Shown here in pieces: positions 4,354 through 49,190 of a stretch of DNA of 64,000 nucleotides. The DNA comes from Spirochaetia bacterium. Lineage in GTDB: Bacteria; Spirochaetota; Spirochaetia; SZUA-6; Bin103. The notes beneath the pieces are model-generated. The model ran no database searches. It saw only the letters and a list, made by a program, of their open reading frames with translations, and had not been told where the DNA came from. The position numbers and the translations under genes are program-made. The stretch's first letter is position 1. The number at the start of each line of letters is the position of its first letter. The stretch is taken from assembly GCA_965198005.1 (NCBI GenBank), contig CBDAOI010000002.1, positions 192,001-256,000 of the forward strand, in the 5' to 3' direction.

Positions 4354-5292
4354 CTACGGACGTTGGGCGTCGAGGAACGCGCGCACGCGCTCGGGCACCA
4401 GCAGGTCGGGCTGGGCCAGCAAGGCCGCCAGCCGCTGCGGGTCGGCGAAGCCGTTTTGCAGCGCCGTCTGCAGCGCCTTGAGCCCCGCGTACGGGGCCTC
4501 CACCTCGGTGAGCAGAATGACCGCGCGCTCGAATTCGACCTCGGCGTAGAGGTCCCGGCGCTCGGGACTGCCGCCGCCGCCGCGCGCCCCGAGCGCTACG
4601 AGCGCAAGCTCGTAGGCGCGCAGGGCCGCCACGTAGCTCTCCCGCCGGGTCTCGACCCGGGCCAGCGCGACCAGGGCGTCCACGTCGTGGGGATGCACCT
4701 CGAGGTACCGGGACAGCACGGGGGCGGCCGCGTCCGGCAGCCCCGAGTCCGCCAGCAGCACGCCGAGCTGATAGCGCGCCTGGTGGTCGCCGGGCTCCTG
4801 ATCGAGCAGCACGCGCAACTCGTCCGCGGCGGCCGCGCGGTCGCCCTGTTCCCAGAGCAGCATCGCGGCGTTGTAGCGGGCGGTGACGTGCGCCGGCTGC
4901 AGGTGCAGCAACTTCCGGTACACCGCCAGCGCGGCCGCGAATCGGCCCTGCCCCTGCAGCGCAGCCGCCCGCAACTCCAGCACGCGCACATTGTCGGGCG
5001 TGGCCGCGGCCAGCAGGTCCAGGTGGGGCATGGCGGCGGCCGGGTGGCCGGCCCGGATCAGGGCGGTCGCCAGGTGGAACCGTGCCCCGGGAGCGTCCGG
5101 CCGCAGCTCCAGGGCGCGCTCGAGATACGCGATCGCCCGCTCCGGCTGGTCCAGCCGCAGATAGCCGCTCCCCAGGGCCACGTACTCGTCCGCCAGCTCG
5201 GCACGGCTGAGATCCGTGGCGCAGCCCGCCAGGATCACCACGGCCAGCACCACGGCCGCCGCGGCCGCGCTCCCTGTACGCCATGCGCCCAT
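4354..5292 (-). CDS. TPR-repeat lipoprotein, copy 1
   Basis: Lipobox LAGC, TPR helices; near-identical to 11543-12487. Confidence 0.85.
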   Translation of the reverse strand: MGAWRTGSAAAAAVVLAVVILAGCATDLSRAELADEYVALGSGYLRLDQPERAIAYLERALELRPDAPGARFHLATALIRAGHPAAAMPHLDLLAAATPDNVRVLELRAAALQGQGRFAAALAVYRKLLHLQPAHVTARYNAAMLLWEQGDRAAAADELRVLLDQEPGDHQARYQLGVLLADSGLPDAAAPVLSRYLEVHPHDVDALVALARVETRRESYVAALRAYELALVALGARGGGGSPERRDLYAEVEFERAVILLTEVEAPYAGLKALQTALQNGFADPQRLAALLAQPDLLVPERVRAFLDAQRP

Positions 5293-5351
5293 CCGCACGC
5301 CGCAGTGTGCGCGATTCGCCGGAGCCGGGCCAAGTGCCCCAAGTGCCCGTG

Positions 5352-5717
5352 CTAGCGTAAGTTGCGCACTTTCAAGGACGATGTAGCGAGATTTGCCGGT
5401 CGCACAGATGAACGGAGGCCCCTGAGGGCGAGAGATTCTACCGGGGGACGAGTTTTTCCCCATGTAGTGATAAAGAGCATGGTAAGCAGTTTCTTGGTGC
5501 AGAAATATCTTGACCGCTCTCGCCCCCGTTGCTATCTTGTGCGTGCGTGTTCATCGGTCAGCTCAAAGTCTCCCGCAACGGCCGCTCCTACACCTACCAC
5601 CGCCTCCTGCAGTCGGTACGCACCGATAACGGCCCCCGGCAGCGACTCATCCTGAGCCTCGGCACCCTCACGCTCCCCAAGTCCGAGTGGCCGCGCTTGG
5701 CCGAACGCATCCACGAC
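5352..5717 (+). mobile_element. IS1634-family element, left end and 5' transposase fragment
   Basis: Starts CTAGCGTAAGTTG, matching the TIR of the full copy at 47110; near-identical to 47110-47476. Confidence 0.85.
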
Positions 5718-5770
5718 AATGTCAACGTCACAAGCCCCGGGACCAAGCTCCTAAATCGGGTTTCTTACAT
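5718..5770 (-). mobile_element. IS110 remnant C: left-end IR fused to part of the bridge-RNA-like region
   Basis: 5718-5753 is identical to 7693-7728; ends in the left-end motif ATGTAAGAAAC. Confidence 0.6.
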
Positions 5771-5801
5771 GACCACGCCGGGCCCCGCCCGGTGGGAAGC
5801 T
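5760..5801. repeat. 42-bp direct repeat, copy 1 (copy 2 at 7482-7523), at IS110 junctions
   Basis: gtttcttacatgaccacgccgggccccgcccggtgggaagct occurs twice, exactly. Confidence 0.9.
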
Positions 5802-5829
5802 CCTAAGAAACAACAGTCAGGCACGACAG

Positions 5830-7245
5830 TCAGGCAGCCTCCGGGACAAGCACATAACCGAGGGCCCGAGCTTGGTTGCGGACGCGGCGTTCGAGGCGTC
5901 GCAGGTCTTGGCGTTCCTGGGCGGCGAGGATGCTGTCGTCGTACGCAACGCGATGGGTAACGAGATGGTAGATGATGCGCGCCAGTTTGTGGGCAGTCGC
6001 CGTGATCGCCTCGGGAGTACCCAGGCGCGCGCGCATCCGGCGGAAGTACTGGCCGAGGGACGAGGGGCTGCGGTACAAGCACTGGGTAGCCCAGCGTAGC
6101 GCCTGAGCAGCGCGATTGGTGCCGGGTCCGGTGTGTGCGCTGATGATCCTGCCGCCGGTGATCTGGTTGTTGGGACACAGGTTCAGCCAGGATGCGAATT
6201 GCCCCGCAGTCGGGAAGCGTGACAGGTCGGGGCCAAACTCGGTGAACAGGATCAGTGCAGTGCTTTCGCCGATGCCGGGAATGAGCGTCAGGTCGGTGCC
6301 GAACAGGCGCGCAAGGTGCGCCTTCAGGTTGAACGGCTTGGGCGGTGACTCGGTTGGCGTCGGCGGCGCATCGGCGGTCTCCTCCGCAGGGTCCTCCGCA
6401 GGGTCCTCCGCAGGGTCCTCCGCAGGGTCCTCCGCCGGCGCGCTCGGCGGCTCGTTCGTGGATTCGAACGAGCGGATGCGAGCTTCGATTTCCTGATCAC
6501 ACTCCGCGATGAGCTGTTGGTAGTGGGCATAGGTGGCACGCGCGTGACGCAGTGTAAACAGATGCTCGGAGCGCCAGTCACCTTCCAGCGCTGCAATCAG
6601 GGTGGCGCGGCTGGCTTTGATCCGCCGGTCGGCCAGATCGGCCAAGCGTGCTGGATCCCGCTCTCCGTTCAGGATGGCCTCGGTGATAGCCATCCCCGTG
6701 ACCCCGGTCAGGTCAGAGATGGCGTGGTGCAGATGGACGTTCATCTGGTCGTACGCCTTCTGCATGTGCAACACGCTCCGTGAGGCGGTCTTGATCAAGT
6801 TGTCGCGATGGCGCAGCAGGGCGCGCATCGCACAGACTTCGTCAGCGGGCCGGAACGAACCGCGCAGCAGGCCCACGGAGTGCAGGTAGCGCAGCCACTC
6901 GCAGTCGGCCACGTCGGACTTGCGTCCGGGGACCGAGTGCACGTGACGCGCGTTGACCAGCACCACGTCGAAGCCATGCGCCTCCAGGATCTGGTGCACC
7001 GGGATCCAGTAGACCCCGGTCGACTCCATCGCCACAGTGGTTACCTGGCATTCCTTGAGCCAGTTGGCCAAAGCGTGCAGGTCGCCAGTAAAGGTGGGAA
7101 AGTTCCGGATCGGGTCCGGGTCGCGATCAGGGCGCACCGCCGCGTACACCGCCGTGGCGCCCACGTCCAAGCCCGCGGCGTCGGGATGGACGGTATTCGG
7201 TTGCGCTGAACGACTGCCTTTGCCTTTACGGCTGCGTCGTGCCAT
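5830..7245 (-). CDS. IS110-family DEDD transposase/recombinase
   Basis: AAGLDVG, VAMESTGVYW, GRKSDVADCEW, LIPGIG, ITGG, AITATAHKLARIIY; GGAGG SD. Confidence 0.95.
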   Translation of the reverse strand: MARRSRKGKGSRSAQPNTVHPDAAGLDVGATAVYAAVRPDRDPDPIRNFPTFTGDLHALANWLKECQVTTVAMESTGVYWIPVHQILEAHGFDVVLVNARHVHSVPGRKSDVADCEWLRYLHSVGLLRGSFRPADEVCAMRALLRHRDNLIKTASRSVLHMQKAYDQMNVHLHHAISDLTGVTGMAITEAILNGERDPARLADLADRRIKASRATLIAALEGDWRSEHLFTLRHARATYAHYQQLIAECDQEIEARIRSFESTNEPPSAPAEDPAEDPAEDPAEDPAEETADAPPTPTESPPKPFNLKAHLARLFGTDLTLIPGIGESTALILFTEFGPDLSRFPTAGQFASWLNLCPNNQITGGRIISAHTGPGTNRAAQALRWATQCLYRSPSSLGQYFRRMRARLGTPEAITATAHKLARIIYHLVTHRVAYDDSILAAQERQDLRRLERRVRNQARALGYVLVPEAA

Positions 7246-7279
7246 GAGAATCCTCCGCTATGGACTGAGTGGGGCGGCC

Positions 7280-7460
7280 AAGGCGTGAGTAGCAGGTATT
7301 CTCCTAAACGGGATGATCGCCACCCAGCAGCGCCAAGCGAAGACCTCACCAATGACTACGCCACCCGCCCTGGGACCAAGCTCCTGAACGGGTTCGCCCC
7401 GCAGGGCGTAACACCAATGACGCGACGGCCTACTTTCGCGCCCCTACCCAGAGATTTGCA
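7280..7460 (-). ncRNA. putative bridge RNA of IS110 element A
   Basis: Downstream of TATTAT -10 in left end; two similarly built loops (CATTGGTG...CCCG-guide); scaffold conserved with 7626-7761 while short internal segments vary. Confidence 0.65.
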
Positions 7461-7521
7461 CCCATAATAGCGCTCGCCACAGTTTCTTACATGACCACGC
7501 CGGGCCCCGCCCGGTGGGAAG

Positions 7522-7761
7522 CTTCTGAGAAACAAACAAGTCAGGAATGAGCGTTCAAGGAACTGAATGGCTGTCTGGTGGCGCCCTGCTGTCCTCCTGC
7601 GTGATGGGTGGATGGCGCGGCGGGGCGTGAACGACAGGTATTCTTCTGAACGGGATGATCGCGACCGGACGATGCCAGTCCGCGATCTCACCAATGTCAA
7701 CGTCACAAGCCCCGGGACCAAGCTCCTAGTCGGGTTCGCGCCCAGCAGGGCGTCACACCAA
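7522..7761 (-). mobile_element. IS110 remnant B: bridge-RNA-like region, SD and right end, with no recombinase
   Basis: Noncoding region homologous to element A; right end GTTTCTCAGAAG. Confidence 0.7.
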
Positions 7762-8339
7762 CGGAGTTGGCAGCGCGCGAGCGGGAGCTGTTCACGCTGC
7801 AAGAAACCATCATCCTGTACGACTTGAGTTCGACTTACTTCGAAGGCCTCGCGGCCAACAACGAGAAGGCGGCGCGGGGGTACTCGCGGGATCATCGACC
7901 GGACCGCAAGCAAGTAGTGGTCGGTCTGGTGCTGGATGGCGAGGGCTTTCCCAAGGCGCACGAGGTGTTCAAGGGCAACACCAAAGACGAGACCACCATG
8001 GCGCGGATGCTCGACAGCCTGGACCGCCGGATCAGTGTTCGGAGCGGGGCGGGGCGACGGTGGTAATGGACCGTGGCTTGGCGACGGACGAGAACCTGGC
8101 AGTGCTGCGCAAGCGCGGTCAGCACTATATCGTGACCACTGAACAGAGCCAGCGGCGTGAGCTGTTTCCCGAGATTGACAGTTCCGGATACGTGCCGGTG
8201 AAAGTGAACAGGAAGGGGAAAATCGTCGTCTCAGGCCAACTGCGGCGGCATCAGGGTGAGCTGTACGTGTTGTGTTACAGTGAGGCGCGGGCGGCCAAGG
8301 ATCGTGCGATACGGGAACGGTTCGCACACCTATTCGAAC
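7762..8339 (+). pseudogene. IS1634 transposase middle fragment (frameshifted, truncated)
   Basis: Near-identical to 47921-48499; LYDLSSTYFEG, GYSRDHRPD, VMDRG. Confidence 0.9.
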
Positions 8340-8752
8340 GGGAGTATTGTGGCTGGTATTGAGCGGTCCGTCAAATGTGGTAAAATGCGAACGCCCCCTG
8401 TGCGGGGGCGTCCACACTCTACCTGCCGCTGAGCAGGAGCCGGAGGCAGTGATTGTCTCCGGCTGCTTCGTCAACGGCGAAGGAGTCTTCTGTGGGGCAA
8501 CGCAAGCCTACCCTTCTCGACTATTTCCGCCCGAATCCTGCCGCGTGCATCTGTGGAGCGGAGTTTGATCGGCAATGCCCGGTCAACGTCACTCTCATGG
8601 ATCGCTACAGAGGTCCGGTGCAGGGCCTATTCTCGGTGGCTCAGAAGCATGGGATCACGACAGAGGAAGTGCGGGAGCACCTAACCCGCCTTCCACCTGC
8701 CCGCGTCAACTACGAGGCTTAACGCCTACGGGGCGCCTGCCCCTCCCAACCT

Positions 8753-9430
8753 TCAGATCCGCTTACGCTCCATCCCCTGGACCACCATCCGCATCTGGAC
8801 CTCGGTGTTGTCGTAGGGACGCTGGTTGTGGCGGCCGGCGAACTCGTTCACGTAGCGTTGCAGGTGGGCCGGGCTCATCCGGTGGTAGGTGCCATAGTAG
8901 CCCCGCTTCATCATGGTCCAGAACGATTCCAGACCGTTGGTGTGCGCCTGCCCTTCACGTACTCGCCCAGCCCGTGGTTGACCGATGTGTGGTTCGGCAG
9001 CCCCTTGTACGACGCACTCTAATCGGTGTACACGTCCGCCTCCTGGCACCACGGCTGCGCTGATCTGGCGGGAAGCGTGGTCGCGCGCGCCCGCCACGGT
9101 GGACTTGCCGGCGGTGCCGCGGCCGCGGTTCGTCCGCTTGGAGACGTGCTTGTTCTTCTCCTTGCCGCCGCAGTAGGACTCGTCCAGCTCGACCGGCCCC
9201 CTCACAGGACTGGTCGCCCGCCTGATAGTCCCAAGCCTCACGGATGCGGTGCGCGAGATGCCAAGCGGTTTTCTGGGTCACGCCGAGATCGCGATGCAGC
9301 TTCATGCTGGAGGTGCCCTTGATCCCGGTGGTCAGCAGATAGACGCCCAACGCCCAGGTCTGCATCCCAAGGTTGGGCCTCCTGCATGACGCTCCCGTTC
9401 TTGACCGAGCAGTCGTTGCGACAGGAGCGA
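8753..9430 (-). pseudogene. degenerate IS1595-family transposase
   Basis: CRSCRNDCSV, SSMKLHRDLGVTQKTAW, VELDESYCGG, HTNGLESFW..KRGYYGTYHRMS spread over several frames. Confidence 0.85.
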
Positions 9431-9564
9431 CAGACACGGCGGATCAAATGGCCGGAGTTGCACGTAGTATGGAAGGTAGGAGACTACGATACAAGGATCT
9501 TACCGCCGGTGGCCGTCCTTATCCCAAGCGAGTGAATATCAGGGGATTGAAGGAGGTGAGGTAA
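9431..9564 (+). pseudogene. C-terminal tip of a second, oppositely oriented IS1595 transposase
   Basis: DTADQMAGVARSMEGRRLRYKDLTA. Confidence 0.65.
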
Positions 9565-47109: not shown

Positions 47110-49190
47110 CTAGCGTAAGTTGAGCACTTTCGAGGACGATGTAGCGAGATTTGCCGGTCGCACAGATGAACGGAGGCCTCTGAGGGCGAGAGATTCCTAT
47201 CGGAGGACGAGTTTTTCGCCATGTAGTGATAAACCGCATGGTAGGCAGTTTTTGGTGCAGAAATATCTTGACCGCTCTCGCCCCCGTTGCTATCTTGTGC
47301 GTGCGTGTTCATCGGTCAGCTCAAAGTCACCCGCAACGGCCGCTCCTACACCTACCACCGCCTCCTGCAGTCGGTACGCACCGATAACGGCCCCCGGCAG
47401 CGACTCATCCTGAGCCTCGGCACCCTCACGCTCCCCAAGTCCGAGTGGCCGCGCTTGGCCGAACGCATCCACGACCTTCTCAATCACCAGGAAGTCATTC
47501 CGTTCGGCGCCTCTGATCTGGACCAGTTGGCCGCGCCCTTCGCCGAACGCATCCGCCACAAACTACAGCGCCAACAGGCGCAGCAGGGCGATCCCGGGCC
47601 GGCCAAGGAAGTCTATCCCAAGCGCAGCAGCAGTGAGCACCTGCGCGAGCTTGGCCCCGAATACGTTGCTCAGGTGTTCTGGGAGCAACTCCACTGCGAT
47701 CGGATGCTGCAGCGCCAGGGCTTTTCGGAACGGCAGTGCCGGCTGGCCGAGATCCAGGTGGTCGGCCGCTTGGTGGCGCCGCGCAGTGAGCGCGGCACCG
47801 TCGGCTGGTTCGCCCGCACGGCGCTCGCTGAGCTGATGCCCGGCAGCATGCACACCGTCAACAAAGACCGGCTGTACCGCATCTCGGACAAGCTCTACGA
47901 GCACCGAGTTGCCATCGAGGCGGAGTTGGCAGCGCGCGAGCGGGGGCTGTTCACGCTGCAAGAAACCATCATCCTGTACGACTTGAGTTCCACTTACTTC
48001 GAAGGCCTCGCGGCCAACAACGAGAAGGCGGCGCGGGGGTACTCGCGGGATCATCGACCGGACTGCAAGCAGGTAGTGGTCGGTCTGGTGCTGGATGGCG
48101 AGGGCTTTCCCAAGGCGCACGAGGTGTTCAAGGGCAACACCAAAGACGAGACCACCATGGCGCAGATGCTCGACAGCCTGGACCGCCGGATCAGTGTTCC
48201 GAGCGGGGGCGGGGCGACGGTGGTAATGAACCGTGGCTTGGCGACGGACGAGAACTTGGCAGTGCTGCGCAAGCGCGGTCAGCACTATATCGTGACCACT
48301 GAACAGAGCCAGCGGCGTGAGCTGTTTCCCGAGATTGACAGTTCCGGATACGTGCCGGTGAAAGTGAACAGGAAGGGGAAAATCGTCGTCTCAGGCCAAC
48401 TGCGGCGGCATCAGGGTGAGCTGTACGTGTTGTGTTACAGTGAGGCGCGGGCGGCCAAGGATCGTGCGATACGGGAACGGTTCGCACACCTGTTCGAACA
48501 GGATGCCAAGAAACTGAGAGCGCGGGTGGCGGCCGGCAGGTTGAAGAAACCGGAGAAGATCGACCAGGCGATCGGGCGCCTGCTGGGGCGCTATCCGCGC
48601 CTGGCGCGCTACTACACGGTGCAACTGCACACGGCTGAGGGCCAAGCGGAAGTCCGCTGGGGCCGGAAGGAGGAAGCGCAGGTGGTAGCCGAGGAACTCG
48701 ATGGGACCTACCTGCTGCGCACCGATCGCACTGACTTGGCGGAAGCCGAGGTCTGGAAGCTGTACGTACTGCTGGCGCGCATCGAACGGTCGTTTCGCTA
48801 CCTGAAGAGCACCTTGGGGCTGCGCCCGGTGTTCCATCAGCGTAGCGCACGGGTGGACGCGCACATTTTCATCTCGTTGCTGGCCTACCACCTGCTGCAT
48901 GCCATCGAACGGCGTCTGCAGGAGAGTGGCGACCACCGCTCGTGGCCGACGATCCGGGACCTGCTGACGACCCATCAGATGGTGACCATCGTCCACCAGT
49001 GCACCGATGGCACGGTGTTTCGATTGCGGTGTCCGTCGCAGCCGGAGTTGGCGGCGCGCGAGATCTACCGGGCGCTACGGATACCGGCGACCCCGCCGAC
49101 CCGAGGGAGGAGTCGATTGTAGTGACAAACAAAAATCGTAAATTACGGTACAGCAACAACTTGCGTCTGAGAATGCTCAACTTACGCTAG
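47110..49190 (+). mobile_element. IS1634-family element, full length, 17-bp TIRs, no target duplication seen
   Basis: CTAGCGTAAGTTGAGCA ... TGCTCAACTTACGCTAG. Confidence 0.92.
47305..49122 (+). CDS. IS1634 transposase (second catalytic D reads N)
   Basis: LYDLSSTYFEG, VMNRG, IERSFRYLKS.LGLRPVFHQ. Confidence 0.9.
   Translation: MFIGQLKVTRNGRSYTYHRLLQSVRTDNGPRQRLILSLGTLTLPKSEWPRLAERIHDLLNHQEVIPFGASDLDQLAAPFAERIRHKLQRQQAQQGDPGPAKEVYPKRSSSEHLRELGPEYVAQVFWEQLHCDRMLQRQGFSERQCRLAEIQVVGRLVAPRSERGTVGWFARTALAELMPGSMHTVNKDRLYRISDKLYEHRVAIEAELAARERGLFTLQETIILYDLSSTYFEGLAANNEKAARGYSRDHRPDCKQVVVGLVLDGEGFPKAHEVFKGNTKDETTMAQMLDSLDRRISVPSGGGATVVMNRGLATDENLAVLRKRGQHYIVTTEQSQRRELFPEIDSSGYVPVKVNRKGKIVVSGQLRRHQGELYVLCYSEARAAKDRAIRERFAHLFEQDAKKLRARVAAGRLKKPEKIDQAIGRLLGRYPRLARYYTVQLHTAEGQAEVRWGRKEEAQVVAEELDGTYLLRTDRTDLAEAEVWKLYVLLARIERSFRYLKSTLGLRPVFHQRSARVDAHIFISLLAYHLLHAIERRLQESGDHRSWPTIRDLLTTHQMVTIVHQCTDGTVFRLRCPSQPELAAREIYRALRIPATPPTRGRSRL

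Follow-up and report, generated by a model that had tools for sequence, protein, structure and literature searches.

A head-to-tail array of IS110-family units in a Spirochaetia genome, with bridge-RNA target guides that resemble the right ends of sibling copies

Bridge-RNA elements of the IS621/IS110 group of insertion sequences (IS) have been described by Durrant et al. (2024; PMC11208160) and Hiraizumi et al. (2024; PMC11208158). ISPpu9 of Pseudomonas putida and its companion MITEPpu9 (ssr9) are presented in the text of Pares-Guillen et al. (2025; PMC12288879) as having an AG crossover and modular companions that resemble MITEs (miniature inverted-repeat transposable elements). Tandemly expanded IS110 loci and half-match recombination have been reported in two preprints (Hu et al. 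2026, 10.64898/2026.08.14.744561; Xie et al. 2026, 10.64898/2026.08.31.748434), and preprints already cover half-matches, IS110 modules arranged in tandem and non-coding repeat units next to the recombinase. We analyzed a stretch of 64,000 nucleotides from a Spirochaetia bacterium (assembly GCA_965198005.1, contig CBDAOI010000002.1, positions 192,001 to 256,000), hereafter the window. Its positions 5718-7761 hold, as judged from the sequence, a head-to-tail array of three IS110-family (bridge-recombinase) units on the minus strand, in the order B, A, C, inside a dead copy of an IS1634-family element. The non-coding region of a full unit carries two short guides, and in A and C the first of them resembles the right end of the unit standing upstream.

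The array is a 2,044-bp insert (minus strand, 7761-5718) that stands in place of 445 bp of the IS1634-family transposase gene. A BLAST search of the insert against the genome, covering an assembly of four contigs (C1 to C4) that is 90% complete, gave more than ten other sites matching the GC-rich hairpin found between the units. These solo sites are 56-nt units, made of the 40-nt hairpin (CT ... AGAAAC), TGTT and then GTTTCTTAGGAG, and their last 16 nt are the last 16 nt downstream of the recombinase gene of A. Because the solo units join the hairpin to the terminal 16 nt of A, we define the hairpin as the left end (LE) and GTTTCT-NNNNN-AG as the right end (RE) of the element. A search for homologues gave matches in 13 of 61 genomes, from which further copies were then retrieved; in the full homologues of six related genomes, a variable flank is followed by the homologous hairpin, which takes up the first 40-45 nt of the element, and another variable flank comes straight after GTTTCT-NNNNN-AG. 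The flanks of the solo units, which we call minis, and of the full copies in relatives are unrelated on both sides.

With the ends defined in this way, A is a complete IS110-family element of 1,722 bp (7521-5800), B (7761-7522) is a 5'-truncated unit lacking a recombinase, and C (5799-5718) is an 82-bp fragment. The LE of A is the 40-nt GC-rich hairpin at 7482-7521, whose homologues stand at the left end of every full copy in the relatives, and its RE lies at 5800-5815, the same 16 nt that end the minis at unrelated loci. At the array, the right ends are GTTTCTCAGAAG, ending at 7522 in B, and the sequence already given for the minis, ending at 5800 in A; their last heptamers are TCAGAAG (7528-7522) and TTAGGAG (5806-5800), respectively. 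The LE of C (5760-5799) is identical to that of A (7521-7482). An earlier note, made from the letters of the window, had described the units as separated by an identical GC-rich spacer within a 42-bp repeat. The repeat extends over 54 nt at 96% identity (5760-5813 versus 7482-7535), and 42 of these nucleotides are indeed identical, but they consist of the closing AG of one element and the LE of the next, so that the supposed spacer is the first 40 nt of each element. The AGAAAC that closes the LE is an inverted copy of the GTTTCT of the RE; the subterminal inverted repeat measures 6-8 bp, with a 34-nt hairpin between it and the left tip.

The left flank and the RE both end in AG at all the listed sites, so that the same core dinucleotide is present at both junctions, while the bases after the RE are not CT (GA in 10 of 33; CG in 5 and TG in 3 of 14, and others). 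For this reason, the sequences identify AG as the crossover dinucleotide. CT was considered as the core and ruled out, being present after the RE at only a few sites.

The non-coding region of every full copy contains two near-repeat modules, each formed by CAYTGGTG, a hairpin, CCCG and 8 variable nucleotides. The first module, loop 1, continues as CCCG + ACTAGGAG + CTTGGTCCC in B (7734-7714, with the guide ACTAGGAG at 7730-7723), as CCCG + TTCAGGAG + CTTGGTCCC in A (7392-7372, with the guide TTCAGGAG at 7388-7381) and as CCCG + ATTTAGGAG + CTTGGTCCC in C (5760-5739). The guides of the second module, loop 2, are TTCAGAAG in B (7650-7643) and TTTAGGAG in A (7308-7301).

From the first variable block we took the final 7 nt and set them against the 7 nt immediately left of the LE; the final 7 nt of the second block were set against those of the RE. 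For loop 1, the set comprised 53 distinct insertions from seven genomes, and the guide matched the left flank without mismatches at 44 sites, with one mismatch at 7, with two at 1 and with three at 1. The loop-1 guides fall into eight classes (TCAAGAG, TGTCAAG, AGTCAAG, TGTGAAG, AATCAAG, AGTAAAG, TCAGGAG and TAAGAAG), and when each class is paired with its majority flank, only 1 of 40,320 permutations, the true pairing, reaches two or fewer summed mismatches. Single-base switches of the guide are mirrored in the flank, from TGTCAAG to AGTCAAG (L024), to TGTGAAG (L062) and to AATCAAG (L063). The site counts overstate the independence of the observations, as the copies are related, and the fair evidence is the class-level permutation together with the single-base switches. 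For loop 2, the identity with the unit's own right end, which the earlier note had pointed out, holds in A, in B and at 43 of 43 sites, in the four classes TAAGGAG, TCAGGAG, TTAGGAG and TCAGAAG. The identity extends to G014, which belongs to another genus and whose diverged B-type remnant (74% identity) has TCAGAAG both in loop 2 and as its RE. Of the two guides, that of loop 1 is hypervariable, whereas that of loop 2 is conserved.

The possibility that loop 1 is invariant scaffold, or does not follow the flank across homologues, had been named in advance as what would overturn the two-loop proposal. Within AGGAGCTT, invariance is limited to AG and the CT(T) behind it, and the five bases before the AG track the flank, so that the proposal withstands this test. 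Since loop 1 covaries with the left flank and loop 2 with the element's own RE, comparative sequence analysis assigns them as the target guide and the donor guide, respectively, of a bridge RNA with an AG crossover; the separate donor- and target-binding loops in a shared scaffold are thus recovered, with both relations recurring in homologues. The loop-1 guide of A has independent support from nine non-tandem LE-bearing copies in this genome, namely eight minis and one LE remnant, none of which carries such a guide itself: the sequence on their left is TCAGGAG in seven and TGAGGAG in two, in line with the guide of A.

The CT that follows AG in the guide corresponds to the first two bases of the LE. 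These two bases go with the start of the LE across lineages of different phyla: they are CT in the Spirochaetia metagenome-assembled genomes (MAGs) and CA, CG or TC in homologues from other phyla with 45-53% protein identity. Loop 1 would therefore read the occupied left junction and not the empty site alone. This recalls the use of the target loop on junctions of left target and right donor (LT-RD) presented in a preprint by Sun et al. (2025).

In two other genomes, the RE of a full element runs directly into CTTGGTCCC, which lies immediately 3' of the loop-1 guide in a sibling (L074, G020:C3:2561030-2565536; L067, G014:C2:2411471-2415991). The left end of the sibling is missing as far as the guide, and the DNA coding for a guide is a perfect copy of the target half-site. 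In these two genomes, elements appear to insert into the bridge-RNA gene of a sibling.

The genome contains 17 LE-bearing copies (15 distinct among 17 matches, with two duplicate pairs of identical flanks, plus two others). Seven of the 17 stand directly behind the RE of another copy, always with the exact junction RE-AG/CT-LE, and the tandem partners are unlike each other: B/A, A/C, remnant/B3, mini/mini twice, mini/B-type and remnant/mini. Nine non-tandem copies lie at ordinary TCAGGAG or TGAGGAG sites. The loop-1 guides present in the genome are TCAGGAG in A, CTAGGAG in B, TTAGGAG in C and TAAGAAG in B3, a B-type copy at C3:754261-754598, and all of them are zero to one change from RE variants found there. 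The likeness of loop 1 to the right junction of the upstream neighbour, as first noticed at the array, was confirmed: the guide of C equals the RE of A, that of A is one change from the RE of B, and at a second locus the relation is again exact, with TTAAGAAG in loop 1 of B3 and GTTTCTAAGAAG at its neighbour's end. The B3 guide equals the RE of the decayed copy ahead of it, a variant seen once among the family ends in the genome. In contrast, the loop-1 guides of G003, G014, G020 and G022 (TGTCAAG and variants) are unrelated to their RE, TAAGGAG.

From these sequence relations, we lean towards the reading that the right ends of siblings are programmed targets of the target loop. According to it, an element would select its target through the loop-1 guide, which has the sense of the left DNA and is made up of 5-6 nt followed by AG and the first two LE bases, and would recognize its donor through the loop-2 guide, in the sense of its own RE. 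Where the RE of a resident copy is a cognate or near-cognate target, elements would stack, as proposed for A behind B, C behind A and B3 behind the decayed copy. The protein or the donor loop probably also reads the RE context, that is, GTTTCT plus the heptamer.

A second account attributes the stacking to the donor loop. In it, the resident RE serves as a donor half-site (left donor, LD, only), an incoming circle recombines by a donor-donor half-match, and the likeness of loop 1 to the neighbour is incidental or a by-product. Half-match recombination and LD-only matches at the repeat-unit boundaries of tandemly expanded IS110 loci are reported in the preprint texts of Xie et al. (2026) and Hu et al. 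(2026). Tandems of identical elements fit loop 2 exactly and loop 1 less well (in G005, L021 and L057 have one mismatch in loop 1 and none in loop 2; in L142, loop 1 is unrelated), and the minis behind TTAGGAG ends have no mismatch to loop 2 of A and one to its loop 1. The preference for right ends also exceeds what a heptamer can give. However, at the two junctions of unlike partners where both guides can be scored, the incoming loop 1 fits better than loop 2, with one versus two mismatches for A behind B and zero versus one for B3. The RE variant matched by the guide of B3 occurs once in the genome and B3 sits exactly there, and all four loop-1 guides of this genome are RE-like, which does not hold for those of G003, G014, G020 and G022. 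We therefore judge the donor loop to be a serious but rather unlikely sole driver of the stacking. Both loops may act together, because the RE context (GTTTCT plus the heptamer) is what the donor machinery binds anyway.

Several observations weigh against targeting of right ends by loop 1 and, more generally, against the bridge-RNA interpretation. The heptamers are common in the genome (TCAGGAG 613, TCAGAAG 245, TTAGGAG 79 and TAAGAAG 56 occurrences), and since right ends are a small share of these occurrences, the heptamer alone cannot yield seven of 17 insertions at right ends. In G005, where a single change likewise separates the guide from the RE, just 1 of 15 copies is tandem. Tandems exist in which loop 1 is unrelated to the RE (L068 in G014, and L142), and the guide of A carries one mismatch to the end of B. 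As B and C are truncated, the order of events at the array cannot be reconstructed. As to the RNA, Rfam gave no family match (a scan of 5000-8600 at E <= 1 returned a chance microRNA match outside the region), a consensus scan of 5650-7850 gave no sigma-70 promoter, and the evidence for expression consists of contigs from RNA libraries. For the right half of each guide, a k-mer complementarity scan of the RNA against the donor junction gave no consistent site, and the right flanks of 56 non-tandem sites show only weak, lineage-specific dinucleotide leanings. The earlier note's claim that units are programmed to insert behind each other is thus partly supported, by the seven of 17 copies found behind a sibling's RE, and is weakened by heptamers that occur 56 to 613 times in the genome and by tandems in relatives with a loop-1 guide unrelated to the RE; that right-end targeting causes the stacking is our inference.

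The second half-guides had also escaped the earlier note, and our other approaches agree with the complementarity scan: the duplex energies of cognate and non-cognate RNA/left-end pairs are alike (-23.3 versus -22.5 kcal/mol), and inspection of the strands 5' of each hairpin gave nothing consistent. Either the reading of the right target is very short in these elements or the right-half guides lie unrecognized elsewhere. A short right reading would be possible, as the natural right target guide (RTG) of IS621 has 4 nt according to the published descriptions. Recognition of the right target by structure was rejected as a candidate: the 40 nt to the right of the 56 sites fold no better than controls (mean -10.4 versus -11.7 kcal/mol, p = 0.057, in the opposite direction).

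A third account dispenses with RNA guidance and has the array arise from dispersed copies through segmental duplication, slippage during replication or unequal crossing-over between them; we consider it very improbable. Unguided rearrangements do occur around these elements: the joints at both outer ends of the array are illegitimate, show 1-2 nt of microhomology and go with the loss of 445 bp from the host, C has lost internal sequence at a GAAAC/GAAC microhomology, and at C2:26679-26702 a guide has given way to a 24-nt patch derived from the recombinase gene. However, all seven internal junctions are exactly RE-AG/CT-LE between unlike partners, and homologous exchange between unlike partners would not put the junctions at the element tips. 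Finally, a host origin of the 42-bp repeat as a palindrome like the repetitive extragenic palindromes (REPs), with the units as separate insertions into neighboring REP copies, was dropped as practically negligible: the repeat is a GC-rich hairpin at more than ten genome places, and the relatives IS621 and ISPpu9 are described as targeting REP sequences (PMC12288879, and a reference listed in PMC11208160), but the homologous hairpin invariably opens the element, as its first 40-45 nt, in about 50 full copies of six other genomes, where it adjoins the bridge-RNA region without a break and follows variable flanks, every LE hairpin match in this genome is attached to a bridge-RNA region or to the 16-nt RE and none shows the independence expected of a REP or a bacterial interspersed mosaic element (BIME), and the solo copies, which always carry the 16-nt RE too, have a left flank that matches the loop-1 guide of A.

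The region between the LE of A and its ATG spans about 275 nt, upstream of the recombinase gene and on the same strand, and the bridge-RNA region within it was placed at 7246-7440 from guide covariation and an alignment of homologues. This alignment (A2) has 22 sequences, including homologues from Desulfobacterota, Betaproteobacteria and Chloroflexi, and was used to evaluate four helices. H2 (7430-7426 with 7378-7374 in A; columns 48-52 with 103-107) is 100% paired, with one-sided changes only. P1 (7416-7411 with 7393-7389; columns 62-67 with 88-92) is also 100% paired, with a U-A to C-G replacement in 7 sequences. P1' (7351-7342 with 7318-7309; columns 131-140 with 167-176) is 94.9% paired and H3 (columns 108-114 with 204-210) is 79.7% paired, each with five pairs changed on both sides. 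Together, 92.9% of the cells of the four helices are paired, compared with 84.2% in shuffles (0 of 500 reach the observed value) and at most 53.8% when the partners are slid, and eleven pairs across the four helices change on both sides. In the resulting model, each left guide would lie directly 3' of a capped hairpin (P1 or P1'), and H2, to which upstream sequence contributes a strand, would close loop 1. The loop order of the IS621 type (outer stem, left guide, capped stem-loop, right guide) was not found on the supported helices of this predicted structure. A fold obtained with RNAalifold from 10 close sequences, which pairs the guide regions and has little covariation, was replaced by the helices of the wider alignment.

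The homologues with 45-53% protein identity (L130-L145 and L191; MAGs of Desulfobacterota, Betaproteobacteria and Chloroflexi) have the same scaffold, namely GRCCG ... CAWTGGTG, hairpin, CCCG, guide ... CATTGGTGA, hairpin, ATCCCG, guide, together with an AG crossover. In two of them, L142 and L136, the RE is followed by an LE again, and L136 may be a tandem copy or a circular contig. For distant homologues in Sphingobacteriales, the boundary analysis gave a different, more complex end structure.

A -10-like hexamer of A, TATTAT, is found at 7464-7469, and its position is conserved in the relatives (TATAGT, TATACT and TAGACT), so that this hexamer is a possible promoter element of the bridge RNA. 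In two RNA libraries from one study, contigs cover the B-type sequence at a word depth of 33-37, versus 0-11 over the remaining stretch, while two other runs, whose library kind is unrecorded and probably DNA, have their greatest depth outside the B region. The RNA contig runs on into the flank of a B-type copy at another locus and not into the array context, and no contig in the four public runs spans the joint between B and IS1634 at 7761/7762. RE-LE joints also occur in contigs of the public runs and are indistinguishable from tandem copies or minis. These data hint weakly that the bridge RNA is made, as the contigs show neither strand, ends nor level and the libraries may contain DNA.

Only A has a recombinase open reading frame (ORF) in the array, at 7245-5830 and with 471 aa, in agreement with the earlier observation that B and C lack one. 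The protein matches PF01548 (1.2e-18, residues 24-168), PF02371 (2e-09, residues 319-385) and NF033542, "IS110 family RNA-guided transposase", with 250 bits (cutoff 140) over model positions 2-341 of 343, and it has the domain makeup of the IS110 group, with a DEDD RuvC-like domain at the N-terminus and a Tnp (Transposase_20) domain at the C-terminus. By its protein domains and both guide relations, the element of A belongs to the IS110 group. A search of the whole assembly showed that A is the sole full-length recombinase copy of its family, the others being three fragments. We infer that the recombinase of A is active. In the linker between its two domains, four tandem 12-nt units at 6371-6438 encode PAED repeats.

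The comparison of the smaller units points to a second lineage. B has kin at C2:26617-26894 and at C3:754261-754598, with 92-95% identity and both without a recombinase (B itself, at 7522-7761, has 95% identity to C2:26658-26894 and 92% to C3:754365-754598), and other B-type remnants occur at C3:423858-423922 and in G014. The copy B3 is complete, with the LE, the -10-like hexamer, both modules, a short tail and the RE TCAGAAG; compared with B, it has the LE and about 100 nt more on the 5' side. At the array, B lacks the LE, the hexamer and the 5' strand of H2. C consists of the 40-nt LE fused to 42 nt of loop 1 (5718-5759, with the guide ATTTAGGAG at 5756-5748, a fragment of B-type bridge RNA that breaks off mid-loop at 5718), with about 95 nt gone at the GAAAC/GAAC microhomology. 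The sequence of C at 5717-5753 is 100% identical to that of B at 7692-7728, and the loop-1 variant of C is a third one, set in sequence that elsewhere matches B at 100%. Relative to A, the B-type helices have compensatory changes (GAUC/GAUC for GGUC/GAUC in P1', and CGGGGC/GCCCCG in H3). B and B3 show 20 differences, of which 4 lie within the 8-nt loop-1 guide, while the loop-2 guide and the RE are free of them. The B-type copy at C2:26617-26894 differs in two ways: its loop-1 guide and the 5' neighbors of this guide (C2:26679-26702) are replaced by 24 nt identical to positions 6979-7002 of the window, within the recombinase gene of A, and its RE is cut after GTTTCT.

On the basis of these sequences, B and C belong to a second, recombinase-less lineage with its own bridge RNA. 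At the array locus, both are probably inert debris, and the earlier proposal of one recombinase plus several guide cassettes does not apply there, as B and C are truncated. Intact guide-only elements of the B type do lie elsewhere in the genome, which taken as a whole may offer such a combination. A decayed recombinase gene at C4:1384072-1384818, with the RE TCAGAAG, 68% identity to A and one stop, likely represents the autonomous parent lineage of the B type. The enzyme of A, at about 68% identity to this remnant, is a candidate for serving the B-type RNAs. It is conceivable, and we propose it tentatively, that the B-type units are self-guided hitch-hikers, which lost the recombinase and kept a complete, maintained bridge RNA, with a donor guide that fits their own TCAGAAG ends and not the TTAGGAG of the autonomous element, and a target guide that changes fastest and was repeatedly retuned to sibling right ends.

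The smallest units are the minis, which account for 12 of the 17 LE-like matches and consist of the 40-nt LE, TGTT and the 16-nt RE. They are located at C1:33703, C2:26561, C2:177336, C2:177397, C2:364988, C2:733662, C3:151589 (= C4:2390427), C3:707391 (= C4:2010884), C4:852093, C4:1123799 and C4:1426443, and they fold as two adjacent hairpins, the second of which pairs AGAAAC with GTTTCT. As in MITEs, the recombinase-less units have ends like those of an autonomous relative, carry no recombinase gene and occur at several loci. Because the left flank of the non-tandem minis equals the loop-1 guide of A, the minis look like the smallest units mobilized in trans.

The element that hosts the array is interrupted between 5717 and 7762. 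Its left part, at 5345-5717 on the plus strand, has 96% identity to an intact copy (~47304-47684) and includes, from 5529, the N-terminal coding part of the transposase; homology ends at 5717. Its right part, at 7762-8343 on the plus strand, has 98% identity to the intact copy from C2:239921. In the intact element (~47.3-49.1 kb of the window), to which the two flanks have 96-98% identity, 445 bp lie between the two flank sequences, and these are absent at the array. The outer joints, where IS1634 sequence adjoins the truncations of both B and C with 1-2 nt of microhomology, coincide with this deletion of the host gene, and no one-step history could be derived for the outer ends. The intact copy, at 47272-49119 and 40 kb from the disrupted one, is the reference for the 445-bp deletion; it has a 615-aa ORF that matches NF033559 with 327 bits (cutoff 100) and PF01609. 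Overlapping ORFs on the minus strand at 8753-9437 suggest that insertion sequences are clustered in this part of the window. The translations of these ORFs resemble what we take to be an IS1595-type transposase.

Bridge recombinases are being developed as programmable genome-writing tools, and natural guide variation is directly informative for them. The family described here is a clean natural experiment, in which single-base changes of a guide are mirrored by changes of targets and ends, and its AG-core scaffold is common to several phyla, with left guides placed after capped hairpins and a right target half that appears almost unread. A lineage whose target guides converged on the family's own right ends would stack in one place and spare host genes. 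If the recombinase-less candidates with their own bridge RNA are active, bridge RNAs work in trans in nature and can be parasitized. Should the hitch-hiker proposal be true, one recombinase would serve a guild of guide-bearing parasites and of 56-nt minis parked in "trains", a natural multi-guide, trans-acting bridge system and a safe-harbor strategy.

Compared with the tandemly expanded loci in the texts of Hu et al. (2026) and Xie et al. (2026), the copies studied here are alike in having no target immunity and boundaries with a left-donor match only. Those texts put the boundaries down to donor half-matches, and, in what they set out, target-loop guides equal to the neighbor's RE are not described, nor are mobile units with a bridge RNA but without a recombinase; the converse is mentioned in the two surveys, as recombinase-only elements that imply a bridge RNA in trans. 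In the literature on bridge RNAs with MITEs or with non-autonomous, orphan or tandem elements, supplements aside, we found neither target guides tuned to sibling right ends nor mobile units with a full bridge RNA and their own donor specificity but no recombinase.

With IS621, as portrayed in the two published accounts, the family shares a DEDD + Tnp recombinase, a structured RNA in the left end and upstream of the recombinase gene, one guide of 8-9 nt that runs in the sense of the left target and the core and another in that of the RE and the core, the absence of long terminal inverted repeats and of target duplication beyond the core, and a hypervariable loop-1 guide next to a conserved loop-2 guide. 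In contrast, the core is CT in IS621 and AG here, and the IS621 order of stem, left target guide (LTG), stem-loop and RTG looks circularly permuted in our predicted helices, where the guide is 3' of a capped hairpin. Likewise, no right-half guide is assigned here and the right flanks are nearly unconstrained, the loop-1 guide extends 2 nt into the LE, and a 6-8 bp subterminal repeat lies behind a 34-nt hairpin.

The resemblance to ISPpu9, as presented by its authors, includes AG as the dinucleotide where recombination takes place, a GC palindrome close to the left end, tandem copies, modular units that share one recombinase, and a recombinase-less companion with parent-like ends that is found both directly downstream of the parent's RE and alone elsewhere. 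ISPpu9 targets REP sequences, whereas the targets here are short heptamers and sibling right ends. The companion of ISPpu9 carries the small RNA Ssr9, which in that description is not presented as a bridge RNA and is dispensable for transposition, whereas the B type carries a complete two-loop bridge RNA, with a donor guide that matches its own ends and is unlike the ends of the autonomous element.

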